A DNA stretch of 64,000 nt from Candidatus Latescibacterota bacterium (GCA_965217585.1 OZ244561.1:7136001-7200000); one strand, 5' to 3'. Counted from the first letter of the stretch, positions 1 to 17,310 are shown. Notes: generated by a model from the letters alone, not told the origin. Program-made: numbers and translations.

Positions 1-1
1 G

Positions 2-1282
2 CGTTGGTTAGCCGGAGAGGACGCCGCAGACGACAGTGCCGATGTAGAAGGAATCGGTGCAGAGGATGGCATTAGCGGGAACAGTTCGTCCAAGGTGGAA
101 CGTCAGATAATCCGATGGCGAGGGGTGGCCGAAACGGAATCCGAACACATCACAGCGGACCCTAGGACGATTCGTCCCGGCGATGTTATTGTGATCCCAG
201 CTAACCATCCGGGGCTAGCGCGTCAACTCGGAGACCTGCCGCCGGACGCCGACTTGGATGTGGGAGATCGCGCCTATCGGCTCGCCCGCGCTAAGCCCAT
301 CCTTCGCTTGCACCCGAAGTTAGTGGACGATTGGCCGGATTCCGTTACGGCTAAAGGTCCCGCAGACGAACTGCTAAAGGATCTGGAGCAGAAGTACGAC
401 GACGATCCGCATGAGGTCGGCAATGCCTTGAGGGAGCTTCTACAGGAACTGGCCGCCTCTGAATCGCTCCCAGAACACTGGTCTTGGTTGCCGAAAGCGG
501 CAAAAGAATTGAGCAAGGAATACTCCGGCTCCAAGCTGGCCCGTGCCTATCGCGCTGTCGGCGGCAAAAGTATCGTCCTCGTCGGGCGGCAGCGCATACC
601 GGAACTCACCCTCGAAGCCGACCACTTCAGCGATGAGGACGACGCTAGCGCGTCTGGGATCGGGCGTCCCGTCAAATTGTTAAGTCACCTGCCCGGCGTC
701 GAAGCGTTTGCCCGCCGTCATGCCTCGGGCTGCGGCTTGCCAGCGGACTTGGTCGAAGTTCTCGCCTGCGCTGGCCTGTTGCATGACTTGGGCAAGGCCG
801 ATCCTCGATTTCAGTCGTTATTGCGTGGTGGCACTCGCTGGTTGGGCGGGGAACTTCTCGCCAAGTCTGCCGAAATGCCGAGAAGTCCGGCAGCCTATGA
901 GAAGGCTCGGACCGCTTCCGGCTATCCGAAAGGTGGGCGGCACGAACTGCTTTCGGTGCGCTTGGCAGAAAGCGCGTCGATTCTTTTGCCGGAAAGGGAC
1001 GATCTGCGAGACTTGGTTCTGCATTTGATTGCCAGCCATCACGGCCACGGTCGGCCGTTCGCGCCGGTGGTGTGTGACGAGCAGGGCGAGGATGTAGATT
1101 TCGAGTTGCGCGGCCAACGGACGCACTGGTCTGGTCCCACCGGCCTTGAGCGTCTCGACTCCGGCGTCGCGGATCGCTATTGGCGGCTGGTGCGGCGCTA
1201 TGGCTGGTGGGGTTTGGCTTGGCTGGAATCTCTGCTGCGACTTGCTGATTGGCGGCAGAGCGAACAGGAGGAGACACAATGA
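2..1282 (+). CDS. cas3: Type I-G Cas3 helicase-nuclease, 3' part (gene starts upstream of window) with C-terminal HD domain
   Basis: Frame open from base 2. Contains HD-domain motifs SHLPGV, LLHDLGKADPRFQ, RHE, HHGHGRP, LRLADW at the C-terminus, the arrangement typical of I-G (I-U) Cas3; cas context. Confidence 0.9.
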   Translation, partial: RWLAGEDAADDSADVEGIGAEDGISGNSSSKVERQIIRWRGVAETESEHITADPRTIRPGDVIVIPANHPGLARQLGDLPPDADLDVGDRAYRLARAKPILRLHPKLVDDWPDSVTAKGPADELLKDLEQKYDDDPHEVGNALRELLQELAASESLPEHWSWLPKAAKELSKEYSGSKLARAYRAVGGKSIVLVGRQRIPELTLEADHFSDEDDASASGIGRPVKLLSHLPGVEAFARRHASGCGLPADLVEVLACAGLLHDLGKADPRFQSLLRGGTRWLGGELLAKSAEMPRSPAAYEKARTASGYPKGGRHELLSVRLAESASILLPERDDLRDLVLHLIASHHGHGRPFAPVVCDEQGEDVDFELRGQRTHWSGPTGLERLDSGVADRYWRLVRRYGWWGLAWLESLLRLADWRQSEQEETQ

Positions 1283-2208
1283 CCGCAAATGAATCAACTC
1301 CGGGGCTTTTGCTGAACGGACTTGACGGCAGCAATCCGCTCGGATTTCTCGCGGCCATTGGCACTGCGGTTGTCCTGCAAGATGTATTCCCAGAAATACG
1401 CCTTGGCTGGGAACAAATAGAGGGCGGTTGGAGGCCATCCTTGGCAGGTTGTGGCGACGATGAGCAGGAATTTGCGGAAAAACTCTCAGAAGCTCTAAAA
1501 GACGCACCCATGACTGTCTTTGATGTTGACAACAAGATGCCTTTTGACACCGAGAAATTTTCTCGCAAACTGCGAGATGTTCAGTGCTGTTCGTCTATTG
1601 CCGATCGTCGAGATGCCGATTTTCTGTCCAGCTTTGGAACCGAACTATATCCCGATGAGAAAAACGGACAGTTCCAAGATTCAAGGTTCAGGATGGTACG
1701 TAGCGGAGATAGTGCGGGACAAGGATTGCCGTTCTATGCCAAGGAAATGCGAAAAAAGGTCAGCATAGATCACATTCAACGCACTTTGTTTCACGCTTGG
1801 GATTACCAAGACACAGGGTATAGCCTGCGTTGGGACCCTATTGAAGATCAGCGGTATGCTCTGCGTTGGCGCGATCCGAGCAAGTCAAGCCAAGACACCA
1901 TGTTGGCGGCCAATAGCTTGGCGGTTGAGGCATTACAGTGGTTTCCGGTGGTAATGCCCGTTGGGAACCAAGCGCAAACTACGGGATTTCAGCGACTCAG
2001 GCGGCGCGAGACCTATTTCGTCTGGCCGATTTGGACCCCGATGGTGGGCATAGAAACTGTGCGTTCTCTGCTGGCCTTGGACGATCTTTGCAAAGAACCC
2101 GTACCCCGTTCATCCCTTGTCAAGAGAGGTATTGAGGAAGTTTATCGCAGTCAGCGCATCCAGCAAAGCCAGTACTACAGCAACTTCCTTGTTGCTGTCC
2201 CAGCGTGA
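1279..2208 (+). CDS. Type I-G associated Cas8g-like / Cas3-extension family protein
   Basis: ATGA overlap with the cas3 stop and AGGAGG RBS. GLDGSNPLGFLAAIG N-terminus and LRWDPIEDQRYALRW motif resemble the protein found after cas3 in I-G loci. Confidence 0.7.
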   Translation: MTANESTPGLLLNGLDGSNPLGFLAAIGTAVVLQDVFPEIRLGWEQIEGGWRPSLAGCGDDEQEFAEKLSEALKDAPMTVFDVDNKMPFDTEKFSRKLRDVQCCSSIADRRDADFLSSFGTELYPDEKNGQFQDSRFRMVRSGDSAGQGLPFYAKEMRKKVSIDHIQRTLFHAWDYQDTGYSLRWDPIEDQRYALRWRDPSKSSQDTMLAANSLAVEALQWFPVVMPVGNQAQTTGFQRLRRRETYFVWPIWTPMVGIETVRSLLALDDLCKEPVPRSSLVKRGIEEVYRSQRIQQSQYYSNFLVAVPA

Positions 2209-2387
2209 AACGCTTCGTGAACCAAGCCTCGGTTAGGAGCCGATGCTGATCTTCAGAGCAAGGCAATTAACTTGGGTATAGAAGTTCTCTGACAGATGAA
2301 ATTTGAAATTATTCCATAGCGTAGTAGGTTTACGGCGCATGTTGAACTCTTGTCATCGCCGTGCATTCCGATTGGATACCGCAATCT

Positions 2388-3857
2388 ATGAGCAAAGCAG
2401 TCTATTTGGCTGGTGATTTTTCTGGAATCCAGCGTTATGTGCTGGGTGTGAAGAGCGCGGGCAAAGCACAGGCGAAGCGCTTGCGAGCCCGGTCTTTCCT
2501 GCTCGAACTCTTTGAACATGCCGCACTTTGGACGGTAAAGGAACGTTTGCGTATTGCTGACGATGATGTCCTAGTCCGGGGTGGGGGTGGTTTCCTGATA
2601 AGGATTCCACCTGATACCGATCCCGTTCGCCTTGAGGAGATTCGTTCCGGCTTGCAACGCAAGCTGTGGGATGAATCCGGCGGAGAAGTCCAGTTCTCGT
2701 TGGGCTGGGCTGAGACGCCACTCGCCGCCCGCGCTCATCTGGAACTTCAGAAGCGCCGTATAGGAGCTTTCATGCTGCAAAGCAGCGGCGGTTGGAACCC
2801 GGCGGGTTGGAGCCAACCTTCACTTGACAAGCCGTGTGAAGTCTGCCGCCAATCTCCAGGACAGCAGAGCGTGCAGGATGAAGGTGAGGAAGTCCTACAT
2901 TGTAGAAGCTGTCTGGAGGCCCGCAAACTCGGTGAAAAGCTGACTCGGTGGAAATGGATGCGCCCAGGTGGCGGCTCAGTGCAAGCGCTGGGCGTTGGCT
3001 TCGAGCACGTGAACGATCAGGAGTCTGAGGCTTTTCGCGTGGGCCGCTGGATACCGCGTCATTCCGATTCCCGCGAACCGCTGACATTCCAAGAAATCGC
3101 AGAGCAAGCCCGTAGCGACCGTCGTTTGGCTGTGTTGAAAGCCGATGTGGACGACATGGGCGTCCGGGTCGGACAAATTGCCGGAGAAGACCAGTCGTAT
3201 AACCGGCTGCGGTCTTTCAGTTACAGTCTGCACGAGTTCTTCGGGCAGACAATTCAGGAATTGTTGGCAAAGTCATGGCCTTTGATCTATACGCTGTATG
3301 CCGGCGGGGACGATCTGCTGCTAGTTGGCCCTTGGGACGTTGTGCTCGACTTTGCGGGGTCTCTGGTAAGAAAGTTTGAGACGGGTCCGGCCCAAGAGTA
3401 TTCACCGCTAACCTTAAGTGCTGGAATCGCTCTAACCCCTTACCGCGTACCGATCCGTCACGCAGTCGAGCGTGCGGAGGAACTCTTGGAGTCGGCTAAG
3501 CAACGTCCGGGCAAGAATCGGTGCGCCGCCCTCGGGGCGGATTGGAGTTGGAAGCAACACGAATCTGTAGTAGGCGATGGCAAGCGGCTGGCGGACTGGG
3601 TTGGGGATGGAGTGGCTCCTCGCTCCCTACTACATCGTTTGCTGCGTCTCGCGGAGAGCAGCAAGCCTGTGCGAGTGGCTCGCTGGGCTTATCAAATCGA
3701 GCGCAACGTGCATCGACGCCACACCGACTTTCGTCGCTGGGCAAACCGTGTGATCGAATATCTAGGGCGCGACGAACAGCGCACAAACGAATTGGCGGCA
3801 AGTCTCCGCTATGCCTTGTTGGCAACACGACCGCGAAAGGAAGGACGCGATGAGTAG
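2388..3857 (+). CDS. cas10: Cas10/Csm1, compact and HD-less, with intact Palm2 cyclase motif
   Basis: Starts directly at Palm1 motif LAGDFSGIQRYV; Zn finger CEVC..CRSC; KADVDDMG and YAGGDDLLLVG (GGDD). ATG at 2388, alternative GTG at 2361. Confidence 0.92.
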   Translation: MSKAVYLAGDFSGIQRYVLGVKSAGKAQAKRLRARSFLLELFEHAALWTVKERLRIADDDVLVRGGGGFLIRIPPDTDPVRLEEIRSGLQRKLWDESGGEVQFSLGWAETPLAARAHLELQKRRIGAFMLQSSGGWNPAGWSQPSLDKPCEVCRQSPGQQSVQDEGEEVLHCRSCLEARKLGEKLTRWKWMRPGGGSVQALGVGFEHVNDQESEAFRVGRWIPRHSDSREPLTFQEIAEQARSDRRLAVLKADVDDMGVRVGQIAGEDQSYNRLRSFSYSLHEFFGQTIQELLAKSWPLIYTLYAGGDDLLLVGPWDVVLDFAGSLVRKFETGPAQEYSPLTLSAGIALTPYRVPIRHAVERAEELLESAKQRPGKNRCAALGADWSWKQHESVVGDGKRLADWVGDGVAPRSLLHRLLRLAESSKPVRVARWAYQIERNVHRRHTDFRRWANRVIEYLGRDEQRTNELAASLRYALLATRPRKEGRDE

Positions 3858-4380
3858 CATGGAGGATGCTATGAAAAAGGCGGGATTCAAACCGGAACGA
3901 CAACAGCGGCGAGATCTCGGCGGCGATAATCGTAACAGACCGCAAAGGGAAGCACTTCCGGAATTCCCAAGTTCGTACTTTGAAGTCGATCCACAAAGCC
4001 GAAAATACCTTCAACCTATATTCGTCGCCAAACAATCTGTCGATCGTTTGGCGAGGATATTGGGGAAGGAATCCAGACCGAAACTCACTACCGGCCAGAT
4101 GCGCCGCTTCTTCAATCACTGCCGCGAGATTGAACGTCAATTGAAAGTTGACGGCAGAAGCTGGCATCAAGTATCTGCCCGCTTCGAGGGACTCTGTTAC
4201 CAAGCTCAGTACGCAAAATCGGCGGGTAAGATACCCAAGGAATTTCAAGATTTCATCGATGACAACGTGAAACGGGTAGGCTCCGCGAAAGAGCCGGAAA
4301 GGGCCTTTCTGGACGGCTTTCTACCCCATTTCGAGGCATTGGTTGGCTTTGGGGCCGCTTATATGAGGGAGGTTTCCTGA
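3850..4380 (+). CDS. csm2: Csm2 (Cas11) small subunit
   Basis: LTTGQMRRFFN motif and C-terminal FEALVGF; lies between cas10 and csm3. Confidence 0.88.
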   Translation: MSSMEDAMKKAGFKPERQQRRDLGGDNRNRPQREALPEFPSSYFEVDPQSRKYLQPIFVAKQSVDRLARILGKESRPKLTTGQMRRFFNHCREIERQLKVDGRSWHQVSARFEGLCYQAQYAKSAGKIPKEFQDFIDDNVKRVGSAKEPERAFLDGFLPHFEALVGFGAAYMREVS

Positions 4381-4381
4381 C

Positions 4382-5053
4382 ATGCAAAGAACCGCTATTC
4401 ACACCATTACCTTTACCGCTCGCTGCGAAAGCGGTCTTCATATTGGAGGTTCGCAAGACGAGTTGGCAATTGGTGGGTCCGACAATCCGGTGATCAAGAA
4501 TCCAGAAACTCGTCAGCCCTATATCCCCGGTTCCTCGCTGAAGGGAAAGATGCGAGGCGAATTGGAGAAGCAATTGGGCCGATTCAGCGGTCGGGATAAT
4601 GATCGTCCGTGCAGTTGTGCAAAGGATGAATGCCCCGTTTGTCGGATATTTGGAGCGCACATGAACACCAGAAGCAATCTCGGCCCTTCCCGTATCATCG
4701 TCCGCGACGGTAGGCCCCTCACGGGTGTTCGCATCGAGAACAAAACGGAAAATGTCATAAATCGCCAAACTGGCGCGGCTCAACATCCGCGCTCAAACGA
4801 GCGGGTCGTTGAGGGAACAGAGTTTGGGATGCAGATCGTTCTACAAGTCTTCGATCTTGATAGAGATTTCTCGTACACGGACACCAACGGTGGCTCGCAT
4901 CGAGGCGACGAAGCCCTCCAAGCGGTCGTCGCTGATGGCTTGAATCTGGTGCAGATGACGGGTCTGGGCGGTGGGACAAGCCGGGGTTCAGGCGCGGTGA
5001 GTTTCGACGATTTCAAATTGGACGGCAATACATGGACCCATTGGTCCGTCTGA
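4382..5053 (+). CDS. csm3: Csm3 (Cas7) RAMP backbone RNase
   Basis: GLHIGG, GGSDNPV (catalytic Asp position), PYIPGSSLKGKMR, Zn-binding cysteines and G-rich loop GLGGGTSRGSG. Confidence 0.93.
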   Translation: MQRTAIHTITFTARCESGLHIGGSQDELAIGGSDNPVIKNPETRQPYIPGSSLKGKMRGELEKQLGRFSGRDNDRPCSCAKDECPVCRIFGAHMNTRSNLGPSRIIVRDGRPLTGVRIENKTENVINRQTGAAQHPRSNERVVEGTEFGMQIVLQVFDLDRDFSYTDTNGGSHRGDEALQAVVADGLNLVQMTGLGGGTSRGSGAVSFDDFKLDGNTWTHWSV

Positions 5054-5982
5054 GGCTGAAGCCTCTCGGGGTTTGGACCACGCCTTGGCAGGCGGATTCG
5101 CTGCTTGGCGCGATGGCGTGTGCATGGGCGCGTTCTCGGGGGCAGGATGCGCTCCAGCGGGACTTTTTGGAGCCGTGGCTCGCCCACGAGCCGCTGTTTG
5201 TCATCTCCGATGCTTTTCCTGGCGATTCTTTGCCAGCACCGGCGGGCCTGCCGTTATGGTGGGACTGGCCTTCGGAAGAACGCAAAACCGTCAAGAAATG
5301 TCGCTGGATGACTACGACCGACTTTCGTCGAGTCCAAGAGGGGAAAAAACCCAATCTAGAAGATCCCGGTATCTCTATCCGCGATCGCGTGCGGCTGCGC
5401 AATACCATCTCCCGCGTTTCCAATACCACGGGTGCTGGTGGTGAACTCTTTGAAGTGCCGTTTTCAAATCTCAGCAAGTCCGACGGCAGCCTGACCATTT
5501 TTGCTCGCGCTGCCGACGGTGGCTTGCAGATTTTGCTGGAGGCCTTGGAAATGCTGGGGCGGACCGGGTATGGTGCCGATGCCTCGGTGGGCCACGGCGG
5601 TTTTGAGCTAGACGGCGATCCAACTTCCTGTCCCGAACTGGATAATGTTCTTGGGGCTGACGGGTTCACATCCCTCTCAACGTTCCAGCCAGCGGCTACT
5701 GACCCAGTGGAAGGTTTCTGGCGACTCTTCGTCAAGTACGGAAAACTGGCCCCAGAGTTCCACTCTAGCGCCGTGTTCAAACGTCCACAGGTCATGCTGG
5801 CGGCCGGTGCCTGCTTCCGCACGAAACACCCTCCAAAACCTTTCTACGGTGCTCCGATTGGGCCGGAGCGCTTGCTTAGCAAAAGTGCCCGTGAATCGCT
5901 TGCCGCACGGGGCATTCACCCGGTTCAAGCGGCTTTCGCGCTCGCTGTTCCCATGATCTGGCTAAAGGGAACAGACGGGTGA
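5032..5982 (+). CDS. csm4: Csm4 (Cas5) RAMP
   Basis: ADSLLGA, ISDAFP, RNTISR and G-rich loop GYGADASVGHG; follows csm3. Confidence 0.88.
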   Translation: MDPLVRLRLKPLGVWTTPWQADSLLGAMACAWARSRGQDALQRDFLEPWLAHEPLFVISDAFPGDSLPAPAGLPLWWDWPSEERKTVKKCRWMTTTDFRRVQEGKKPNLEDPGISIRDRVRLRNTISRVSNTTGAGGELFEVPFSNLSKSDGSLTIFARAADGGLQILLEALEMLGRTGYGADASVGHGGFELDGDPTSCPELDNVLGADGFTSLSTFQPAATDPVEGFWRLFVKYGKLAPEFHSSAVFKRPQVMLAAGACFRTKHPPKPFYGAPIGPERLLSKSARESLAARGIHPVQAAFALAVPMIWLKGTDG

Positions 5983-6009
5983 GCTTACAGTTAAAGGATT
6001 GACGCTTAT

Positions 6010-7083
6010 ATGGCACACCTACTCATCACCACTGTTGGCACGTCTCTGCTAACCAACCGCGATGACCGTCCATGGGCAGGATGGAATGGGCGGGCTGGCG
6101 ACCCGTTGCCAGACGTAGTGGACGTAGATCAGTGGCTGGATCAGGCAGAGGTGGTCACAGCTAGCGCCGAAACTAATACCTTGTACGCCATTGGCGTCCA
6201 TGACTCAGATCATATCCTCTTCCTCCACTCCGACACACCAGAAGGGCGCTTTTGTTCAGAGCGGCTGCAACATTTCTACGCCAAGCGTTGCCGTCAAGTT
6301 TACGGTCGTTCGCTAACTGCCTTGGGGTACTCCCACGCTAGCTTCTCGCAAAAAGGGTTGAAAGTCTTGGTCGAAGAAGCCATCAAAGCCGTGCGTGAAG
6401 CGCGTAAAAAATCTCTTCAACCCGTATTTTGTGCCACAGGTGGGTTCAAGGCCGAAATCGCTTTTCTCAACTTATTGGGTGCCTTGTTAGAGGTCGAAGT
6501 GTACTACATCCACGAGCAATTTAGAGAGATTGTTCGCCTGCCTCGCTTGCCATTGAATTGGGATATGCAATGGGTTATAGAACGCCAGGATTTTTTTCAG
6601 TGGATTGATGACGAGCCACGTCCAAGCGCAGAGGTGGAGAACCGATTAAAGGCGCGCCCAGAACTTCGGCCGCTCATCGAAGATGATGCGGATGGAAACT
6701 CGTACCTCAATGCGGCGGGCGACTTGCTGTTTCGCGTTGCCAAGGAACGGTTGAGCCTTGAACCTCGTGCGACTTGGCCCGATGTGGTGGCGAGACCGCC
6801 GCAAGAAAAAGATCACCTTTCTGATGTGGAGCATCACCGTCCGAAAGGTTGGAAGAATTTCGTCTCTCGCCTTTGTGCGATTGATTGCGTAAGCCGAGTC
6901 TCTTATGATACGGCCGCCTTTGGCGGCGAAGTGGTCAAGGTGCTCGACGGTGCCAACGGCGTCATTGCGGTGCGATATGGTAAGGGCGACAAGGAGTTAC
7001 CCTTACGCATTGAGACATCTGCTCGTGGGACAGAGCAAACGGAGTTGGTTGAAGAATACATTGCACGGTGTCTTCGGAACTGA
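6010..7083 (+). CDS. CRISPR-associated CARF protein (APE2256-like) with additional C-terminal domain
   Basis: N-terminal TTVGTS, SAETNTL, HSDTPEG, ATGGFK and YYIHEQF..LP motifs of the APE2256 CARF family; directly downstream of the csm genes. Confidence 0.82.
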   Translation: MAHLLITTVGTSLLTNRDDRPWAGWNGRAGDPLPDVVDVDQWLDQAEVVTASAETNTLYAIGVHDSDHILFLHSDTPEGRFCSERLQHFYAKRCRQVYGRSLTALGYSHASFSQKGLKVLVEEAIKAVREARKKSLQPVFCATGGFKAEIAFLNLLGALLEVEVYYIHEQFREIVRLPRLPLNWDMQWVIERQDFFQWIDDEPRPSAEVENRLKARPELRPLIEDDADGNSYLNAAGDLLFRVAKERLSLEPRATWPDVVARPPQEKDHLSDVEHHRPKGWKNFVSRLCAIDCVSRVSYDTAAFGGEVVKVLDGANGVIAVRYGKGDKELPLRIETSARGTEQTELVEEYIARCLRN

Positions 7084-7179
7084 CCGCTTTGCGTAATTTA
7101 CATCAGGTTTTAAATACCTAAAGGCTTGAAGGCATGATTACTCCGCTGGTTGCTTTAACCATATAGGGAACGCCACCCC

Positions 7180-8892
7180 ATGCCTCACGACTCCCAACTC
7201 ACCCTACCTCTACCCCCGCCGCCAGTCGATGAGAATACGCCGCTGGTCCCGGCCCGCATGGTCAACGAATGGGTTTATTGCCCGCGGCTGGCCTATTTGG
7301 AATGGGTGGAAGGCGAGTGGGCTGAGAGCGGAGACACGGCTGAGGGGCGGCGCGCTCATGGGCGAGTTGATGAAGGTGGGGGTCGCTTGCCTGCGCCCGA
7401 CGAACTCGGCGAGGAGATGACCCGCGCCCGGGCCGTTACCCTTGCCTCGGAGCGGCTCGGCGTTATCGCCAAGATGGATGTCGTGGAGGCCGACGAGGGT
7501 ATCGCAATGCCGGTGGACTTCAAGAAAGGGAAGCGGCCCCACGTCGCCGCCGGAGCCTACGAGCCTGAGCGCGTCCAAATCTGCACCCAAGCCATGATCC
7601 TCGAAGACAATGGCTATAAGGTCGAGCAGGGGGTGCTTTGGTACGCTGGCTCACGCGAGCGGGTGCAGGTCGTTATCGACGACGAACTCCGCGCCCAGAC
7701 TTTGGAGGCGATTGCCGGCCTGCGATGGGCAGCGGCCAGTGGTCGTCGGCCACCGCCGCTTGAAAATAGCCCCAAGTGCCCGCGCTGTTCGCTGGCTGGC
7801 ATCTGCCTGCCGGATGAGACCAATCTGTTCCGCAAGGGGTATCCGCCGCGCCCGCTGAACCCGTCCGACGATCCGGCGCTGCCGCTCTACGTGCAAACGC
7901 CGGGGGCGCGGCTGCGCAAAAGCGGCGAGCGCTTGGTGGTGGAGACCAAAGAAGAGACCGTGGAAGTGCCCCTGATTGACGTTTCCCAAGTCGATCTGTT
8001 CGGCCCGGTCTCGGTGACTACGCCGGCTCTACACGCGCTGATGAACGCCGAGATTCCAGTGTCGTGGTTTTCTACGGGCGGCTGGTTCCTCGGCCACACC
8101 GTGGGGACTGGCAATGGCAATGTGGCCGTGCGCCAAGCCCAGTACCAAGCTGCTTTTGACGAGCCTCGCCGCCTCGCCTTTGCGCGCGACTTGGTGGCGG
8201 CTAAGGTGCGTAATGCGCGGACGATGCTGCGGCGCAACTGGCGTGTCAGTGGAGACGCGGAGGCGAAAAGCGACGTCTTGGTGCGATTACAGCGCATTGT
8301 CCAGCGGGTGCCCCGCGCTAAAGACGACCGTCAATTGCTCGGCATTGAGGGCGAGGCCGCGGCGATCTATTTCGCCTGTTTTGAGAACATGCTCACCGAG
8401 GGTGGGAAAGAGGATGTGCCCGCGTTCGCTTTTGCAAAGCGCAATCGGCGTCCGCCCACCGATCCGGTGAATGCCATGCTCTCGCTGGCTTATGCCTTGT
8501 TGACGCGGGTTTTCACGACCGCGATCTCGGCGACCGGCTTGGACCCTTACATGGGCCTCTACCATCGCCCGCGTCATGGTCGCCCGGCGCTGGCCCTCGA
8601 TTTGATGGAGCCATTTCGGCCTATTGTCGCGGACTCCTGCGTACTTCAGGCTATCAATAACGGCGAGGTCAAACCGGGGGATTTCGTATTCAACGGCCCG
8701 GCGTGTTCGCTAAAGACTAATGGGCGCAAGGCGTTTATCGCCGCGTTTGAGCGTCGTCTGGAGCAGGAAACCACGCATCCGCTTTTTGGCTATCGCGTCT
8801 CTATGCGGCGGCTGATTGAGGTGCAGGCTCGGTTGTTTGCCCGGCATTTGCAGGGCGAAATTGTCCCCTATCCGCATTATCTGCCCCGGTAG
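7180..8892 (+). CDS. cas1: Cas4-Cas1 fusion (type I-G adaptation)
   Basis: Cas4 motifs YCPRL, VDFKKG and CPRCSLAGIC, followed by Cas1 motifs LLGIEGEAAAIYF, NAMLSLAY and LALDLMEPFRP. Confidence 0.95.
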   Translation: MPHDSQLTLPLPPPPVDENTPLVPARMVNEWVYCPRLAYLEWVEGEWAESGDTAEGRRAHGRVDEGGGRLPAPDELGEEMTRARAVTLASERLGVIAKMDVVEADEGIAMPVDFKKGKRPHVAAGAYEPERVQICTQAMILEDNGYKVEQGVLWYAGSRERVQVVIDDELRAQTLEAIAGLRWAAASGRRPPPLENSPKCPRCSLAGICLPDETNLFRKGYPPRPLNPSDDPALPLYVQTPGARLRKSGERLVVETKEETVEVPLIDVSQVDLFGPVSVTTPALHALMNAEIPVSWFSTGGWFLGHTVGTGNGNVAVRQAQYQAAFDEPRRLAFARDLVAAKVRNARTMLRRNWRVSGDAEAKSDVLVRLQRIVQRVPRAKDDRQLLGIEGEAAAIYFACFENMLTEGGKEDVPAFAFAKRNRRPPTDPVNAMLSLAYALLTRVFTTAISATGLDPYMGLYHRPRHGRPALALDLMEPFRPIVADSCVLQAINNGEVKPGDFVFNGPACSLKTNGRKAFIAAFERRLEQETTHPLFGYRVSMRRLIEVQARLFARHLQGEIVPYPHYLPR

Positions 8893-8897
8893 CGAAT

Positions 8898-9191
8898 ATG
8901 GCCAACGAGCGTCTCTACATCGTTGCTTATGACATTGCCGAGCCGAAGCGTTGGCGGCGCGTGTTCAAGGTGATGAAAGGCTATGGACACTGGTTGCAGT
9001 TATCGATTTTCCAGTGTCGGCTGACGGCCCGGCGACGGGCTGAGATGACGGCGCGGTTGGAAGGTTTGATCAAATTGGCAGAGGATCACATTCTGATTTT
9101 GGATTTGGGGCCTGCTGACCAAGTTGATCCTCTGGTAGAAAGTCTGGGCAAGACGTATGAAGCGCCGAGTCGGCAGGCGACAATTGTTTAG
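8898..9191 (+). CDS. cas2: Cas2
   Basis: YIVAYDI and LQLSIFQC motifs; 97 aa, after cas1. Confidence 0.95.
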   Translation: MANERLYIVAYDIAEPKRWRRVFKVMKGYGHWLQLSIFQCRLTARRRAEMTARLEGLIKLAEDHILILDLGPADQVDPLVESLGKTYEAPSRQATIV

Positions 9192-9400
9192 CGGGGAATC
9201 TGCCGTGTCCCCTGCGAGTGCTCGGATGCAAAGAAAAAGGCCGGTAGCTCTCGCAATGCGCTTTCTATTTGTATTACAAGGAGATAGGTCGTATTATGAT
9301 ATGCGTTTGGCGAACAATTTGCATGTTCGAGAAGACAAAGCGGCCACCGCTCGCAAAAGGGGTGGAAAACCCAAGCCGCACAGGGAGTTCCGAAGGGACT
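9192..9400 (+). promoter_or_regulatory. CRISPR leader
   Basis: Non-coding 209 bp between cas2 and the first repeat, with AT-rich core and inverted GCGAG/CTCGC motifs; the degenerate repeat is at the opposite end of the array. Confidence 0.8.
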
Positions 9401-12400
9401 AATTTCCGGGGTGGAAACGCCCCGGCCTCATTGAAGCTACCACTTGAGTATTTGTGACAAGTTCCTCTTTATTAGCAATTTCCGGGGTGGAAACGCCCCG
9501 GCCTCATTGAAGCTCGTTCCACGGCATCATGTTCACCTTCTCGATCAACAATTTCCGGGGTGGAAACGCCCCGGCCTCATTGAAGCACGAATACGCCGAG
9601 ATGGAGTTCTTTTCTGAGGGCCAATTTCCGGGGTGGAAACGCCCCGGCCTCATTGAAGCTCGAGTTGAGGAAAAATATTTTTCTTAAATTTTTGTTAATT
9701 TCCGGGGTGGAAACGCCCCGGCCTCATTGAAGCTTGATGCTTTTGACGAGCGCCAACCCGCCCCGCGATAGCGGGAAATTTCCGGGGTGGAAACGCCCCG
9801 GCCTCATTGAAGCATCGCGTAAGCTGTCGAGAGGGGAACCTGCCCGCCGAAATTTCCGGGGTGGAAACGCCCCGGCCTCATTGAAGCGCGCAAGGTCGCG
9901 TCTTTGCTCCGCGGCGCTGGCGTAATTTCCGGGGTGGAAACGCCCCGGCCTCATTGAAGCGACATGCGCACGGATGCGGCCTCGGGTCATCGAAAGCAAT
10001 TTCCGGGGTGGAAACGCCCCGGCCTCATTGAAGCAGAAAAGGCCGATAAGTCTCGGAGCATAGCTGTCGAAAGAAATTTCCGGGGTGGAAACGCCCCGGC
10101 CTCATTGAAGCGAGGTCGTATGGTTTGACCTGCCTACACCTACGGGCCAATTTCCGGGGTGGAAACGCCCCGGCCTCATTGAAGCCCGGATGGCCCACCA
10201 TTGAAGGCGGCGAATCGTGAAAATTTCCGGGGTGGAAACGCCCCGGCCTCATTGAAGCATTTCTAAGCTCCTTTAAATAAAAATCTAATATAATAATTTC
10301 CGGGGTGGAAACGCCCCGGCCTCATTGAAGCCCTCTGCAGAAGAATTCGCTGCAAAAAACTGAATACAATTTCCGGGGTGGAAACGCCCCGGCCTCATTG
10401 AAGCTCTTGCTGGTTTTGTTGCAGGTTCCTTACGGTCGCCGAATTTCCGGGGTGGAAACGCCCCGGCCTCATTGAAGCCGATATGCTTCTATATACATTT
10501 TTTGCCTTAGACAAAATTTCCGGGGTGGAAACGCCCCGGCCTCATTGAAGCAGGCAAAGCACCCCTATACTCACCCTCACGACAGGAAATTTCCGGGGTG
10601 GAAACGCCCCGGCCTCATTGAAGCCACCTATACCAGACTCTCTATGTATGCGCCCCGGCTGCAATTTCCGGGGTGGAAACGCCCCGGCCTCATTGAAGCC
10701 TTTCATGATTTATCCTTTCACATTTAGCTACTGAAATTTCCGGGGTGGAAACGCCCCGGCCTCATTGAAGCTCTTGGATGTTGGGGTAAGTTTCCTTACC
10801 GACGCTATAATTTCCGGGGTGGAAACGCCCCGGCCTCATTGAAGCGCTCCTTCTTGAATGAGTTGGATAGTTGATGCAGGCGCAATTTCCGGGGTGGAAA
10901 CGCCCCGGCCTCATTGAAGCGAGTGAGGATCGAGACATCCCCACAGGTCTCGGCACAATTTCCGGGGTGGAAACGCCCCGGCCTCATTGAAGCTCTCGCT
11001 CACAACGCGCAAAAGCTCACCGCAGCCGACAATTTCCGGGGTGGAAACGCCCCGGCCTCATTGAAGCTCCGATAGCAAGCTGTTTCTGTTGGGCAATCCG
11101 CAAGAATTTCCGGGGTGGAAACGCCCCGGCCTCATTGAAGCTAGCTATTGCAGGCTCCGCAAAATCCGTTCTCGGTAATTTCCGGGGTGGAAACGCCCCG
11201 GCCTCATTGAAGCACCGCTTGGGGCAATACCTATGGTCGTATGGGCCGCAATTTCCGGGGTGGAAACGCCCCCGCCTCATTGAAGCTTCGGCAACGCGAA
11301 CATCAGCGCCAAAGCCTCCGCAAATTTCCGGGGTGGAAACGCCCCGGCCTCATTGAAGCGATCGACTGCTTGCGCGACTCAAAATCGTTGATGACAATTT
11401 CCGGGGTGGAAACGCCCCGGCCTCATTGAAGCTCTTCAGCAGACCTTCAAAAAACCTTCAAATGAGAATAATTTCCGGGGTGGAAACGCCCCGGCCTCAT
11501 TGAAGCTTGGCCTCATGGGAAACAAGATACAGAAAGTTGCTCAATTTCCGGGGTGGAAACGCCCCGGCCTCATTGAAGCTTCTAGGCGGGCGGTGGAAAG
11601 GGGGATCTTCTGCATCAATTTCCGGGGTGGAAACGCCCCGGCCTCATTGAAGCTTCTTGTGAGAGGCCCTGCAGCCGGAACGAGTCGGCAATTTCCGGGG
11701 TGGAAACGCCCCGGCCTCATTGAAGCTTCTTATCGGCTAAATCCTCTTAGTCTAGGTTTGGCCCAATTTCCGGGGTGGAAACGCCCCGGCCTCATTGAAG
11801 CTACCAATTAGCGATTTAGAATTGATGCAGGAGAAAGACAATTTCCGGGGTGGAAACGCCCCGGCCTCATTGAAGCGTGCGGAGGGCGTTGACGTGCCAC
11901 GGCGATAGAAATAATTTCCGGGGTGGAAACGCCCCGGCCTCATTGAAGCACCGCTTATGGAGAGTAAAAGTTGCAGGGGGGTACGAATTTCCGGGGTGGA
12001 AACGCCCCGGCCTCATTGAAGCTGAGCCTCCCCGGTCGATTGTATCAGCATCTTCCCCAAATTTCCGGGGTGGAAACGCCCCGGCCTCATTGAAGCAATC
12101 ACACTGGGACGCTGCAAAGCCAATTTGACACGGCCAATTTCCGGGGTGGAAACGCCCCGGCCTCATTGAAGCATGGCAGCCACCGCGCTTTCGAGGATCT
12201 CCAAGGGGTAATTTCCGGGGTGGAAACGCCCCGGCCTCATTGAAGCTTGTATTCGACGAAGTGCTCGGAGTTGGCACCCGAAGGGGGCGCGAATTTCCGG
12301 GGTGGAAACGCCCCGGCCTCATTGAAGCTTGTGGTTGATGACGAACCCCTGGTTCTCTATCTCGCAATTTCCGGGGTGGAAACGCCCCGGCCTCATTGAA

Positions 12401-15400
12401 GCAGCTCCAACAGCGACTTGAGCATCGGCTTTTCGCCGGTAAATTTCCGGGGTGGAAACGCCCCGGCCTCATTGAAGCAGCCAACGAGATAAACGAATGG
12501 TTTCAGGCGACGGGAATTTCCGGGGTGGAAACGCCCCGGCCTCATTGAAGCGGCTATGGGCGTTGAAGTATGCTCCAGGTGCGACGAGAATTTCCGGGGT
12601 GGAAACGCCCCGGCCTCATTGAAGCTTGATGTGTGTGAACGTCCGATAAATATCGTCGCGTGAATTTCCGGGGTGGAAACGCCCCGGCCTCATTGAAGCT
12701 GGAAAAAAGGTCGCGCAGATCCACATCCAAATCCCAATTTCCGGGGTGGAAACGCCCCGGCCTCATTGAAGCTTTGAAACGAGTGTGTCATTTGGTGTCG
12801 GTTGGTCCAATTTCCGGGGTGGAAACGCCCCGGCCTCATTGAAGCCAAATAACGAATCGAACACCGAAGCATCATAGCCAAATTTCCGGGGTGGAAACGC
12901 CCCGGCCTCATTGAAGCTGCCATTCGGCATGTTTTTCCAGCTGGTAGGCCAAGAATTTCCGGGGTGGAAACGCCCCGGCCTCATTGAAGCGAGAAAATGA
13001 TGGCGTTCAAGGCATTCCATACGGCCTAATTTCCGGGGTGGAAACGCCCCGGCCTCATTGAAGCTATCGCCTCGCTCTCCCCCGCTCAAATCGACCAGTT
13101 CACACAAATTTCCGGGGTGGAAACGCCCCGGCCTCATTGAAGCGTGGCCTCAATCAGAGTATCGTCCAGCTCAACAATACGGATTTCCGGGGTGGAAACG
13201 CCCCGGCCTCATTGAAGCCCGTATGACGACCGGCATCTCCGTATCCTCTCAGGCCTATTTCCGGGGTGGAAACGCCCCGGCCTCATTGAAGCGATTGGAG
13301 TTCAGCAAATGAAAGTCCTCATCGCCTGCATTTCCGGGGTGGAAACGCCCCGGCCTCATTGAAGCTTATCAGCGACGAGCTGCCCAACGGCACGGCCTCC
13401 CGATTTCCGGGGTGGAAACGCCCCGGCCTCATTGAAGCTCAGTATCAGTGCGAGCGGATACCCGATGTTCTGACAAATTTCCGGGGTGGAAACGCCCCGG
13501 CCTCATTGAAGCTGTACATGCTGGATACCCTTACCCTTGCAGGTGGTACAATTTCCGGGGTGGAAACGCCCCGGCCTCATTGAAGCTTGGGCTTACGCTG
13601 CCGGTAACAGTCGGCTGTCCTGCATTTCCGGGGTGGAAACGCCCCGGCCTCATTGAAGCCAGCAAAACAGGGGTAGCGACGCATCTGCATTGCACAATTT
13701 CCGGGGTGGAAACGCCCCGGCCTCATTGAAGCGGCCTGACGGGCAAGACGATCAAGGAAATCTACGTCATTTCCGGGGTGGAAACGCCCCGGCCTCATTG
13801 AAGCCTGTCGTTGATCGCGTAGAGCTGGCCGTTGTGGTTGGTCATTTCCGGGGTGGAAACGCCCCGGCCTCATTGAAGCTGTGATACCCGGTGTTGTCTA
13901 AGGCTACGTTCAGCCCGATTTCCGGGGTGGAAACGCCCCGGCCTCATTGAAGCGCGGTGAGATTGAGCACGGGCGTCGTTTTGAAAAAGATTTCCGGGGT
14001 GGAAACGCCCCGGCCTCATTGAAGCAAATAGCATTTTTTTTGTACGTGATAACTTCCTTAGATTTCCGGGGTGGAAACGCCCCGGCCTCATTGAAGCTCC
14101 CCCGAAGGCATCGAAGGGAACGTCTGGAATGTCCGATTTCCGGGGTGGAAACGCCCCGGCCTCATTGAAGCACACCAAAGGCAGCAACCTATCAGCCGAT
14201 GAGGTCATTTCCGGGGTGGAAACGCCCCGGCCTCATTGAAGCCGTATCTCATGGTCAAATCTTCCATCAACTTCTGCCCATTTCCGGGGTGGAAACGCCC
14301 CGGCCTCATTGAAGCCGTATCTCATGGTCAAATCTTCCATCAACTTCTGCCCATTTCCGGGGTGGAAACGCCCCGGCCTCATTGAAGCATGTCGTTGACG
14401 TAGAACATTTCATTGCGGATCGGGGCATTTCCGGGGTGGAAACGCCCCGGCCTCATTGAAGCTGGCCACCGTAGGTTGTCCGTATATCTTTCCAAGGTGT
14501 CATTTCCGGGGTGGAAACGCCCCGGCCTCATTGAAGCGCTGGGGTATTGCGGTCAAAGAATCGCTGTAGTAGCCCATTTCCGGGGTGGAAACGCCCCGGC
14601 CTCATTGAAGCTTGTACAGCTTGGCAAAGGAGCGGAACTGATCGGCTGGATTTCCGGGGTGGAAACGCCCCGGCCTCATTGAAGCCCGCAGGAGACATAT
14701 GTCCATATAGTGCAAAACTAAAATTTCCGGGGTGGAAACGCCCCGGCCTCATTGAAGCAGGTGTCGGTGGATTTACCCCAACCCATAGCGAGAGATTTCC
14801 GGGGTGGAAACGCCCCGGCCTCATTGAAGCACGGCTCAAGATTTTTCGCATATAGGCTACCTCGGCGAAATTTCCGGGGTGGAAACGCCCCGGCCTCATT
14901 GAAGCTGCCATCGGCGGACATTCATATCCTCAGACTGCATCCATTTCCGGGGTGGAAACGCCCCGGCCTCATTGAAGCACAGTGATCCTAATTTGTCTGA
15001 CAACAAAGGCAGACCATTTCCGGGGTGGAAACGCCCCGGCCTCATTGAAGCGAGGCCATGTCTCCTGCTTCGGAGTCGGAATTGCCGATTTCCGGGGTGG
15101 AAACGCCCCGGCCTCATTGAAGCAGCTCATCAGTGCGGCGACGCAACTCCCCTATCAGGTCATTTCCGGGGTGGAAACGCCCCGGCCTCATTGAAGCTTG
15201 AACACGCGCTCCATGTAGTCCGCCAGATCGCCCATTTCCGGGGTGGAAACGCCCCGGCCTCATTGAAGCTGCAAGAGGGACTTGAGATACGCCCGCTTGT
15301 TCAAAATATTTCCGGGGTGGAAACGCCCCGGCCTCATTGAAGCCACGGCGGTGGAGTTAATGACGCCCTCATGACTCCGTTATTTCCGGGGTGGAAACGC

Positions 15401-16004
15401 CCCGGCCTCATTGAAGCGCCGTCTCGTCGCACCAGGTCGTATCGTGCTGCGGGCATTTCCGGGGTGGAAACGCCCCGGCCTCATTGAAGCTCGATACCGA
15501 CGATGTAAAAGCAGTCCACCTGTTGCGATTTCCGGGGTGGAAACGCCCCGGCCTCATTGAAGCGCCGTCTCGTCGCACCAGGTCGTATCGTGCTGCGGGC
15601 ATTTCCGGGGTGGAAACGCCCCGGCCTCATTGAAGCCTCTTGGGAATATAGGATAGTCAAACACATTGCCATGATTTCCGGGGTGGAAACGCCCCGGCCT
15701 CATTGAAGCAAGAAATTCCGGTATCGCGCCCTGTTGACCGTGATCGAATTTCCGGGGTGGAAACGCCCCGGCCTCATTGAAGCAAGAGCAACGACTCATC
15801 CGAGATACCGCCCTGCTGCCATTTCCGGGGTGGAAACGCCCCGGCCTCATTGAAGCCTCAATCCGGCAAGCTCATTTACCACTGCCATGCCCTATTTCCG
15901 GGGTGGAAACGCCCCGGCCTCATTGAAGCTACTACGTCTACGAAGACACCGAAGCCGGGTCTAACCGGATTTCCGGGGTGGAAACGCCCCGATCTCATTG
16001 AAGC
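9401..16004 (+). CRISPR. CRISPR array, 90 repeats / 89 spacers, repeat (A)ATTTCCGGGGTGGAAACGCCCCGGCCTCATTGAAGC
   Basis: Manual count of 90 repeats; spacers average about 37 nt. Hairpin CCGGGGTG-GAAA-CGCCCCGG and 3' ATTGAAGC handle are typical of I-G; last repeat (15969-16004) is degenerate. Confidence 0.98.
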
Positions 16005-16053
16005 GCTCCAATCGAGTTGGGTGATTGTATCGCTTCTGAGAAGAGATTATCTT

Positions 16054-16064
16054 AAGTTAAACTT
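16054..16064. promoter_or_regulatory. Possible operator of TA module 1 (AAGTT-A-AACTT)
   Basis: Short inverted repeat just upstream of the antitoxin RBS. Confidence 0.35.
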
Positions 16065-16080
16065 GAAAGGGGGCATGACT

Positions 16081-16326
16081 ATGCCAGAGGTGATCAGCGC
16101 CAAACAGCTCCGAGAGCGTCTACAGGATGTCGTTAAAAAAGTGCGACACGGGGAGCGATTTACCGTTCTATACCGCAGTCGTCCGGCTTTCGACATCGTC
16201 CCGGTTGGCAGTCCACCGCTCGAAAACGCGCCACTGGAATCGGATTCGCTGTACCAGGCCCCAGCCGTTGGGGCATCCGAATCGGGGGACGCTGCCGCAC
16301 GGCATGACGAGGTGCTGTACCGGTGA
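16081..16326 (+). CDS. Phd/YefM-family antitoxin
   Basis: ISAKQLRERLQDVVKKVRHGERFTVLYRSRP is a Phd fold pattern; overlaps the downstream PIN gene. Confidence 0.85.
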   Translation: MPEVISAKQLRERLQDVVKKVRHGERFTVLYRSRPAFDIVPVGSPPLENAPLESDSLYQAPAVGASESGDAAARHDEVLYR

Positions 16327-16730
16327 GGCAAATGTTCGTGGATACGGCCGCATGGGTTGCGGCCGCGGATAGCAGTGATACGGCGGGTTCGGCTGTACGA
16401 GAAGCTCGGGATCAATGGCTGTCGTCAGGAGGTATACTGACGACGACCGACTATGTGATCGACGAGACTCTGACCACCGTCCGGTTCCGCCTTGGTCTTA
16501 ATGCTGCTGAAGCTTGGTGGCAGCAAATCGACGGTTCGGCTCGACTGCGGATCGAGTCCATTGACGAACCGCGAAGAGAACGGGCGCGGTCACTCTTCTT
16601 CGGCTATCGGGATAAGGAATTCTCCTTTACCGACTGCTGCAGCTTTGTTCTCATGCGAGAACTGCGAATCCGTCGAGCATTGACGTTGGACCACCACTTT
16701 CGACAGATGGGCTTTGAAGTTATCCCGTAA
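16323..16730 (+). CDS. vapC: VapC PIN-domain toxin
   Basis: FVDTAAW, VIDE, SFTDCCSF and LTLDHHF PIN motifs. Confidence 0.9.
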   Translation: MRQMFVDTAAWVAAADSSDTAGSAVREARDQWLSSGGILTTTDYVIDETLTTVRFRLGLNAAEAWWQQIDGSARLRIESIDEPRRERARSLFFGYRDKEFSFTDCCSFVLMRELRIRRALTLDHHFRQMGFEVIP

Positions 16731-16769
16731 GCGCAGCAGGTTTTGACAAGCCGTGTGAAGTCTGTCGCC

Positions 16770-16961
16770 ATTTCCGGGGTGGCAACGCCCCGGCCTCATT
16801 GAAGTCCGTAGGGGCTCTTGTTCCTCGTCGATGCGTCCGCGGTAATTTCCGGGGTGGCAACGCCCCGGCCTCATTGAAGTCCGTAGGGGCGACCGGCCGG
16901 TCGCCCCTACATCGCCATTTCTCATATTTCCGGGGAGGCCCCGCCCCGCCCTCATTGAGGC
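16770..16961 (+). CRISPR. Mini-array of 3 variant repeats (16770-16805, 16845-16880, 16926-16961)
   Basis: Two identical copies ATTTCCGGGGTGGCAACGCCCCGGCCTCATTGAAGT and one more degenerate copy; spacers of 39 and 45 nt. Confidence 0.9.
16883..16910. repeat. GTAG-family REP-like perfect palindrome GTAGGGGCGACCGGCCGGTCGCCCCTAC
   Basis: 28-nt perfect palindrome; second copy at 58742-58768. Confidence 0.8.
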
Positions 16962-16983
16962 TTACCGCAACTTCATATATATT

Positions 16984-16998
16984 TGACTAACATAGTCA
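16984..16998. promoter_or_regulatory. Probable operator of TA module 2 (TGACTA-ACA-TAGTCA)
   Basis: 6-bp inverted repeat immediately before the AGGAGG RBS of the antitoxin. Confidence 0.55.
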
Positions 16999-17013
16999 TA
17001 AGGAGGAAAATCC

Positions 17014-17310
17014 GTGGGAAAGTCTCGTCGAGCCGAACAGATTGGGCCGGTATCGATTCCCGGCTGGAAGCTGGGGGAGGCCAAAGCCAAGTTCAGCGAG
17101 GTGGTCCGCCTTGCTGCTGCGGGCCAGCCACAGCGGGTAACGGTTCACGGTAAGGTCGTCGTGGTCATCGTCGCAGTAGATGAATTTGAAAATCTCCAGG
17201 CGCGGGAAAAGTCGGCCAGTTTGCACGAACTCCTGTCCCAATCCCCTCTGAACCGCATCGAGTTCGGCGACGATAGTATTCGGAGCCCGGTTCGAGAGGT
17301 CGAGTTGTGA
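17014..17310 (+). CDS. Phd/YefM-family antitoxin
   Basis: WKLGEAKAKFSEVVRLA..PQRVTVHG Phd motif. Confidence 0.88.
   Translation: MGKSRRAEQIGPVSIPGWKLGEAKAKFSEVVRLAAAGQPQRVTVHGKVVVVIVAVDEFENLQAREKSASLHELLSQSPLNRIEFGDDSIRSPVREVEL

Follow-up and report, generated by a model that had tools for sequence, protein, structure and literature searches.

A minimal Csm module embedded in a type I-G CRISPR-Cas locus of a Latescibacterota bacterium probably shares the type I-G guide RNAs

Introduction

Can a type III effector complex without a processing enzyme of its own draw its guide RNAs from the type I system in which its genes lie? The question is raised by a CRISPR-Cas locus of Candidatus Latescibacterota bacterium (GCA_965217585.1, OZ244561.1), which runs into the 64,000-nucleotide stretch of DNA analysed here (hereafter the window; G000:C1:7136001-7200000 of a 7.32-Mb single-contig genome). 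The genes of a small type III complex of the Csm kind and of a CARF protein stand there between the interference genes and the adaptation genes of a type I-G system. An earlier note on the window had proposed that one set of CRISPR RNAs (crRNAs), matured by the Cas5-Cas6 fusion Csb2, serves both effectors.

From the sequence comparisons reported here, we consider it probable that this is a two-effector locus, in which the transcript of one array is matured by Csb2 and the crRNAs go both to the type I-G Cascade-Cas3 and to a minimal Csm complex. Since the Csm module is without a processing enzyme of its own and recurs in type I-G loci of many phyla, it most likely borrows type I-G guide RNAs. 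Recurrence, co-occurrence with Csb2, reduced loci and the geometry of the repeat all favour the proposal of the note, while its last step, the loading of Csm, stays at the level of prediction.

Results

A Csm module without Cas6 inside a type I-G locus

The open reading frames (ORFs) of positions 1-9200 of the window were annotated by family searches, and all CRISPR-Cas genes lie on the + strand (Table 1). When the DNA upstream of the window is included (L002; L-numbered loci and G-numbered genomes are labels of this analysis), the genes stand in the order csb1, csb2, cas3g, Cas3-extension gene, HD-less cas10, csm2, csm3, csm4, CARF gene, cas4-cas1 and cas2, with the array last, and neighbouring genes overlap or are separated by gaps of at most 153 nucleotides (nt). 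All genes of the cassette that the earlier note had described, co-oriented between type I-G interference and adaptation genes and followed by an array, were found, and the family searches located no cas6 within the module, in agreement with the note. The note had also pointed upstream for csb1 and csb2; both are present at G000:C1 7,130,761-7,136,000, together with the start of cas3g.

Csb1 has 402 residues (TIGR02570, 74 bits; PF09617, 172 bits). Csb2 has 786 residues (TIGR02165, 299 bits) and matches the 492 positions of its model in two stretches, which an insertion of about 300 residues separates. The Cas3 is of the GSU0051 kind, with a helicase and a C-terminal HD domain, the latter encoded in the window part of the gene. 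Since csb1, csb2 and the start of cas3g are found upstream, the type I-G interference set is complete save for a recognisable Cas8g. Two marks of type I-G membership are present, namely the Cas4-Cas1 fusion and a 36-nt repeat ending in TTGAAGC, a tail described as typical of type I-G repeats (PMC11237760).

Recurrence in type I-G loci and co-occurrence with Csb2

With the short Cas10 we found 28 related loci in species-representative genomes, and their gene content was resolved by tblastn and clustering. The record titles come from at least 10 phylum-level groups and include Latescibacterota, Opitutales, Rhodothermales, Spirochaetia, Dehalococcoidia and Acidobacteria. The synteny, for which the earlier note had suggested looking in other genomes, is therefore found elsewhere: type I-G genes lie at most 10 kb from the block in 19 of the 28 loci, as judged from Csb2 positions mapped onto the locus ranges, with L008 counted through its cas3g and Cas3-extension genes. 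The order cas10-csm2-csm3-csm4 is kept in all 26 loci long enough to be read (L022 and L024, on contigs of 2.7-2.9 kb, were left out), and the gene next after csm4 encodes a CARF protein in 25 of 26 informative loci, the exception being L028 with its disrupted cas10. The host loci are of three type I-G kinds, with Csx17, with Cas8g2 or with a Cas3-extension gene. A flanking array of the type I-G kind, with a 36-nt hairpin repeat, is present in 15 of the 28 loci, and the repeat ends in ATTGAAGC in 12 of these 15.

The carrier genomes nearly always encode Csb2, which scores above the cut-off in 27 of 28; the single miss is the genome with the 2.9-kb contig. A stand-alone Cas6 was detected in six genomes in all (PF10040 in 4/28, TIGR01877 below its cut-off in 4/28), and neither model finds one in the other 22, including the close relatives G003 and G004. 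Csm5 scores above the cut-off in one of the 28, about 1 Mb from the module. Within the phylum of the window, Csb2 occurs in 25 of 168 genomes and this Cas10 in 7, all of them Csb2-positive; the 143 Csb2-negative genomes are all without this Cas10. Since kin are not independent, we take the co-occurrence in the phylum as a description and not as a test.

Repeat geometry and reduced loci

The main array consists of 36-nt repeats and of spacers of 35-46 nt (mode 37), and the pattern of the repeat core occurs 93 times in the window, where shuffled sequences lead one to expect 0. The repeat folds into a strong hairpin with an 8-bp stem, followed by 4 nt (CCUC) and then by the 8-nt AUUGAAGC. The isolated C-terminal domain of Csb2 is reported to be an active Cas6, with its cleavage site 4 nt 3' of the hairpin and an 8-nt handle as the outcome (PMC9638904), and the 36-nt hairpin repeat of the Thioalkalivibrio sulfidiphilus type I-G system, cut 4 nt after the stem, has the geometry of the window repeat. 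Since stem, 4 nt and 8-nt AUUGAAGC equal this published layout, the window repeat fits cleavage by Csb2.

Two reduced loci point to the same part of Csb2. In L019 (on a 2.9-Mb record titled chromosome) and L025 (in a second genome), an ORF of 284-287 residues, corresponding to Csb2 model positions 249/257-491, lies directly upstream of cas10 and is preceded by housekeeping genes (thiC or trpB). In the published account of Csb2, residue 260 marks the boundary between its domains (PMC9638904). No Cas3g above the cut-off and no Csb1 at all were found in the two genomes. Compared with the C-terminal halves of full-length Csb2s from related loci, the L019 ORF shows 60-69% identity, and L019 retains intact cas10, csm2-4, a CARF-HEPN gene, cas4-cas1, cas2 and 58 repeats.

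The comparison with L006, L007 and L029 shows a block that has stayed together. From cas10 to cas2 these loci are 86-95% identical to the window, except for csm2 (68-77%) and for the CARF gene, which is comparable in L006 only, and their repeats are identical to that of the window or one base off. Their cas3 genes, in contrast, are only 29-31% identical, and their type I-G effector set is of the Csx17 kind. From this difference between block identity and cas3 divergence, we conclude that the type III module, the adaptation genes and the array stay together while the type I-G interference genes are exchanged. A broader reading, which we put forward tentatively and hold to be slightly less than an even chance, is that the minimal Csm block forms a distinct type III lineage without its own Cas6, Csm5, HD domain or adaptation genes. 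Tied to type I-G as an obligate partner, it would use the Cas6 domain of Csb2 as its maturase, travel with cas4-cas1, cas2 and the array, and outlive type I-G by means of the Cas6 half of Csb2.

A second CRISPR-Cas locus in the genome

A genome-wide search found one true Cas6 (PF10040, 76.7 bits), located at 1.96 Mb, 5.2 Mb from the Csm module. It belongs to a III-D-like locus at G000:C1 about 1,960,104-1,976,600 (L004 10104 to L005 6575), with genes for Cas6, a CARF-sigma54 AAA regulator, a TIGR03986 RAMP of 875 residues with a cold-shock-like N-terminus, a weak Cas10-like protein, Csx10, Csx7, Csx19 and Cas1. A cas2-like ORF was read from the sequence and not by family search, and the array has 14 repeats of 37 nt (GTTTGGAATATTGACCCGATTACTAGGGGATTGAAAC). 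The picture of a single array and a single adaptation module in the earlier note is accordingly true for the locus but false for the genome, which has a second array and a second Cas1-Cas2. The note had named a separate cas6 and type III array as evidence that would speak against sharing; both exist at 1.96 Mb, but there is no sign that they serve the Csm module.

The Csm complex might nevertheless be served in trans, with the Cas6 of this locus cutting the III-D array into crRNAs with the tag AUUGAAAC and with the position inside the type I-G locus being an accident of insertion. The real Cas6, the second array and the second Cas1-Cas2 are compatible with such a supply, as is the sharing of crRNAs between loci known from other systems (PMC5576922; type III survey PMC11229360), and the two 8-nt tags, AUUGAAAC and AUUGAAGC, differ at one position only. 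With a difference of one base only, cross-use of III-D crRNAs is possible but not indicated. However, the III-D locus has a full effector set of its own (the TIGR03986 RAMP, the Cas10-like protein, Csx10, Csx7 and Csx19), and its repeat is unstructured (-5 kcal/mol, z -0.58), whereas the type I-G repeat is a strong hairpin. Among the carriers, the 22 genomes without a detected stand-alone Cas6 and the 19 type I-G-linked loci do not fit an accidental insertion fed from elsewhere, and we regard supply in trans as unlikely.

Conservation of the module proteins

A module that has lost Csm5, the HD domain and Cas6 could also be an inactive passenger, a decaying type III remnant without a guided complex, and split genes in four relatives (L025, L028, L031 and L033) are in keeping with decay. 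We find this quite unlikely in view of the proteins themselves. The cas10 product has 489-498 residues, compared with 757-816 in solved Csm1 chains. The ATG at 2388 is its likely start, since relatives have a stop upstream of residue 10. Family searches of the window ORFs detected no HD domain in Cas10, and since its alignment to the Csm1 chain 6kbd starts at chain residue 234, the HD part of about 230 N-terminal residues is missing. What remains includes the Palm1 motif GDFSGIQ, four zinc cysteines and GGDD, and all three features (Palm1 as D(F/L)SGIQ) are kept in 27 of 27 full-length Cas10 homologues. The motif GG(S/T/A)D(N/S)PVI is found in 17 of 18 Csm3 ORFs, and its version in the window, GGSDNPVI, presumably holds the catalytic Asp. 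Csm3 also matches PDB 4qts with E 2.7e-27, and Csm2, Csm3 and Csm4 all score above curated cut-offs. The five ORFs of the module in the window (cas10 to csm4 and CARF) are open, and the catalytic motifs of Cas10 and Csm3 are kept across loci down to 51% identity. These conserved motifs and the CARF partner kept in 25 of 26 loci indicate that the module is under selection, which argues against a passenger.

RNA-library contigs also speak, as a hint only, against the passenger. Contigs from three libraries cover relatives of cas10-csm4 and of cas4-cas1, with matches in parts of 1885-5966 and 6909-9420, and one of 3096 nt spans 3640-5976 and diverges past csm4. Since the contigs are only 90-95% alike to the window, they derive from relatives. 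They are assembled contigs that give no crRNA ends and in which DNA carry-over is possible, the lack of coverage of the CARF gene in all three libraries carries no weight, and we take them as a hint of expression in relatives and no more.

The whole-genome look for csm5 suggested by the earlier note gave no match to TIGR01899.

The maturase of the Csm crRNA

A host RNase instead of Csb2 could mature the Csm crRNA, as RNase E reportedly does in one III-Bv system. The lack of a cas6 in the module leaves room for such an enzyme, and the Cas6 domain of Csb2 is described as remaining on the 3' hairpin in type I-G (PMC9638904). We nevertheless hold a host RNase to be very unlikely, because in the two reduced loci it is precisely the Cas6 half of Csb2 that survives beside cas10 after the rest of type I-G is lost, and Csb2 is encoded in 27 of the 28 carriers.

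Hardly credible is a chimeric effector in which the Csm proteins join the type I-G backbone, like Cas10d in type I-D: neither Csx17 (in a weak search) nor Cas8g2 was found in the window locus, but the module also stands in loci that have one or the other, brings its own Cas7 (Csm3), Cas5 (Csm4) and Cas11 (Csm2), and persists in L019 without Csb1.

Several observations weigh against a two-effector locus with shared crRNAs. To our knowledge, Csm5 belongs to every solved Csm complex, and it is absent here. In seven of the 28 loci (L013, L020, L021, L026, L027, L028 and L031), neither a type I-G gene nor a type I-G array is present up to 10 kb away; L031, among these seven, adjoins an array whose 28-nt repeat is different. 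Split genes occur in relatives (cas10 and csm3 in L028 and L033, csm3 in L025, cas10 in L031), and since its csm3 is split, L025 is the weaker of the two reduced loci and is possibly decaying or mis-assembled. In both stand-alone Csb2 halves, the His of an FHRF stretch near the C-terminus of the nearest full-length Csb2s is unaligned; that this stretch is the site of the published catalytic His is our guess, the reference protein being absent from the alignment. The two Cas6 models used do not span all Cas6 families, and the genome of the window does contain a separate Cas6 and a III-D array, so that use of their crRNAs in trans by Csm is possible. Handing over a crRNA from hairpin-bound Csb2 to Csm would need its release or trimming. 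Finally, we infer the loading of Csm with array crRNA, the synthesis of cyclic oligoadenylate and the action of the CARF protein from genomics only.

The CARF protein

The gene after csm4 encodes a TIGR02710 CARF protein with a Csm6-type HEPN domain in 19 loci (an assignment that rests on annotated representatives), the CARF protein of the window in 5 and a TM1812-family CARF in 1. The ancillary gene of the window thus differs from that of 19 relatives, in being Cami1-like instead of CARF-HEPN. The window protein is a member of a large family that is well conserved, with 597 homologous matches; each of the 120 listed has at least 58% identity, and almost all of these run over the full length.

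In the AlphaFold 2 (AF2) model of the protein (predicted local distance difference test score, pLDDT, 84.9), the top Foldseek match is Cami1 (8phb, E 1.7e-14), followed by the ring nucleases Sis0811 and Sso1393. The profile match to Cami1 8phb covers residues 50-244 only (E 4.5e-17), and no sequence match to Cami1 was found beyond residue 250. In the profile and the model, the first 250 or so residues resemble Cami1, a CARF-RelE ribosome-dependent RNase (PDB 8phb, 8phj); the CARF sensor, of the APE2256 kind, and the helical domain next to it are homologous to those of Cami1. The two proteins seem to part at the C-terminus: Cami1 has an RNase of the RelE type, whereas the last 100 or so residues of the window protein, with invariant H275-H276-R277, have no sequence match, and a RelE fold was not recovered. 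The C-terminal domain modelled alone (AF2 pLDDT 57) gave 0 fold matches at E <= 0.001, and an atlas search gave no usable match.

Other features of the locus and its relatives

Table 1. Features of the CRISPR-Cas locus in window coordinates, unless a genome coordinate is given.
Feature	Position	Strand	Evidence and remarks
cas3g, 3' part, helicase-nuclease with C-terminal HD	2..1282	+	TIGR02621 207 bits (fragment); Cas3_HD PF18019, TIGR01596
cas3g, whole gene, about 1017 aa	start G000:C1:7134229	+	TIGR02621 659 bits, cut-off 400
"Type I-G Cas3-extension family" gene	1249..2208	+	NF049934 212.8 bits, cut-off 65; no match in Pfam
cas10/csm1, short, HD-less, about 489 aa	2388..3857 (alternative GTG start 2361)	+	TIGR02578 265.8 bits, cut-off 170; PF22335 palm2; PF18211
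csm2, small subunit (Cas11 of III-A)	3811..4380	+	PF03750 42.7 bits; TIGR01870 41.8 bits
csm3, Cas7 backbone subunit cutting target RNA (predicted)	4382..5053	+	TIGR02582 163.4 bits, cut-off 90
csm4, Cas5 subunit binding the 5' tag (predicted)	5032..5982	+	TIGR01903 83.2 bits, cut-off 55
CARF effector gene	6010..7083	+	PF09651 99.7 bits
cas4-cas1 (Cas4g/Cas1g) fusion, type I-G adaptation enzyme	7180..8892	+	NF049935 777.1 bits, cut-off 560
cas2	8898..9191	+	PF09827 65.4 bits; TIGR01573
Leader	9192..9401	+	one promoter-like hexamer pair at 9273-9300, consensus match only
CRISPR array, 90 repeats and 89 spacers	9402..16004	+	repeat ATTTCCGGGGTGGAAACGCCCCGGCCTCATTGAAGC
Three degenerate repeats, old array tail	about 16770..16961	+	a PIN-domain gene pair lies between them and the main array

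The gene that the earlier note had labelled cas8g-like carries no signature of Csx17/Cas8g1 or of Cas8g2 and belongs to the Cas3-extension family instead. The Csx17 model TIGR04113 has no match in the genome, in a weak search that gave no match in any control genome either, and a comparison of the extension gene product with a Cas8g2 shows no similarity (BLASTP E 0.45). The same order, csb1-csb2-cas3-"cas8u1", is given in a paper on myxobacteria, where the gene at the extension position is called cas8u1 (PMC11237760). Identity of the Cas3-extension gene to its counterparts in L008 and L016 is only 43-44%, compared with 83-90% for the adjacent cas3g and cas10; it is either fast-evolving or swapped.

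The insertion in Csb2 (L002 about 14806-15648) separates the Cas5-like from the Cas6-like half, and the long form is also found in L015 and L016. Residues 392-482 within it match a stretch just upstream of cas3 in L007, L029 and L033. A reading of the insert as a phosphoribosyltransferase was dropped, the matches being weak only (Pfam E 9.6e-4; PDB E 0.007), and we assign it no function.

Since the last repeat of the array is degenerate, the leader is placed at the cas2 end. A promoter and terminator scan gave counts not above those of shuffled sequences. The whole array has no protospacer match in a phage collection (viral and metagenome contig collections lay outside this search), and the spacers have only chance matches of 17-18 nt in the rest of the genome. 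Two spacers are duplicated, one at 14243-14283 and 14316-14356, the other within 15418-15636. On the 3' side of the array (16005-17732), a small ORF and a PIN-domain gene (16127-16730) are followed by the three degenerate repeats and a second PIN-domain gene (17307-17732); the PIN gene pairs look like toxin-antitoxin-like insertions into the old array end. About 420 bp upstream of csb1 (L002 about 12300-12395), a degenerate repeat whose loop is different stands in the opposite orientation, as does a 13-nt fragment of a repeat about 37 nt from it; the two are what remains of repeats at the locus's left edge.

Mini-arrays of 2-3 repeats occur between the type I-G interference genes and cas10 in three relatives (L006 9048-9131, L008 1723-1808 and L016 8952-9184). 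L031 (10001-20466) has a variant module with three csm2-like and two csm3-like stretches and a cas10 in two frames, and the adjoining array of the 28-nt repeat has 62 repeats. A gene whose product has AAA-ATPase_like and PDDEXK_9 domains flanks the window locus (L002 9791-11338), as it does L006, L008, L016 and L032, and in L006 it is found on both sides. Farther along the window, a 72-nt unit is repeated 9.3 times in tandem at 47517-48188 (85% matches), inside an apparent coding repeat.

Discussion

The reaction scheme that we propose for shared crRNAs starts at the leader behind cas2, from which the array would be transcribed. Each repeat would be cut 4 nt past the hairpin by the Cas6-like C-terminal domain of Csb2, giving crRNAs with the 8-nt 5' tag AUUGAAGC. 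Part of them would enter a type I-G Cascade of Csb1, Csb2 and the Cas3-extension protein, which may recruit Cas3g to destroy PAM (protospacer adjacent motif)-flanked DNA. Other crRNAs would enter a minimal Csm complex of HD-less Cas10, Csm4, several Csm3 and Csm2, without Csm5. On binding complementary transcripts, this complex is predicted to cut RNA through Csm3 and to make cyclic oligoadenylate through the GGDD cyclase of Cas10, which may switch on the neighbouring CARF protein with its Cami1-like sensor part. Cas4-Cas1 and Cas2 would load spacers for both effectors, and the type III arm could back up the type I-G arm against phages that escape by PAM or seed mutations.

Each half of the locus has a known counterpart. 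The module resembles canonical III-A complexes (PDB 6ifn, 6nud, 7uzw, 6kbd) in the Palm1, zinc finger and GGDD of Cas10, in Csm2, in the Asp motif of Csm3 and in Csm4, but is without the HD part of about 230 residues, Csm5, Cas6 and adaptation genes of its own. The type I-G half shares Csb1, Csb2, a Cas3 with integral HD and the Cas4-Cas1 fusion with T. sulfidiphilus, as far as that system is set out in Shangguan et al. 2022 (PMC9638904). In contrast to it, the locus described here has the gene order csb1-csb2-cas3-"Cas3-extension" in place of a Csx17 large subunit, a Csb2 with an insert of about 300 residues and an embedded type III module.

The borrowing of crRNAs also has precedents, and the locus is less new than the earlier note had assumed, since III-B use of I-F crRNAs and a III-B system run with csb2 are already published. 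III-B systems are reported to use I-F crRNAs, and a chimeric III-B/Cas6f locus is described in Marinomonas sp. MWYL1 (Silas et al. 2017, PMC5576922). There, as in the locus described here and in 19 of the 28 related loci, type III effector genes without a cas6 or array of their own stand beside a type I processing enzyme and array, and a back-up against PAM escape is proposed in that account as well as here. The III-B/I-F case, however, pairs Cmr with I-F, whereas the window pairs a Csm-like set (Csm2-4) with type I-G and the Cas6 domain of a Cas5-Cas6 fusion; its module lies inside the operon, with interference and adaptation genes on either side, and recurs in many phyla. A second case is the Haliangium ochraceum III-B system (cmr1-6): when it was operated in E. 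coli, csb2 is stated to have done the processing (Steens et al., bioRxiv 10.1101/2023.06.23.546230). Csb2 acts there on pre-crRNA for a type III complex, as we propose for the window; according to the same preprint, that system has a six-subunit Cmr with SAVED-CHAT effectors, whereas the window has a four-gene HD-less Csm with CARF. The CRISPRCasTyper preprint mentions hybrid loci in which one adaptation cassette is shared. In the portions of the literature covered, we found no description of a minimal Csm embedded in type I-G; supplements and the 2020 classification lay outside this search, and a mention there is possible. The term "I-G" is absent from the main texts of the type III survey (PMC11229360) and the 2025 classification (PMC12669027).

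Since type III borrowing of type I crRNAs is already known in principle, the surprise of the locus is limited. With Csb2 or only its C-terminal half as the sole processing factor, the small HD-less effector would make a handy minimal system for reconstitution. The locus opens to direct test whether a Cas5-Cas6 fusion resident in Cascade can pass its crRNA to another effector, whether Csm can function without Csm5 and in what way type III modules pass from one type I host to another. If the crRNAs are shared as we propose, the retention of the Cas6 half of Csb2 would be a case in which a type III system has captured the processing enzyme of a type I system, and the locus family would be a widespread and compact case of two CRISPR types on one guide set, in which type I-G destroys DNA and Csm adds signalling triggered by RNA.

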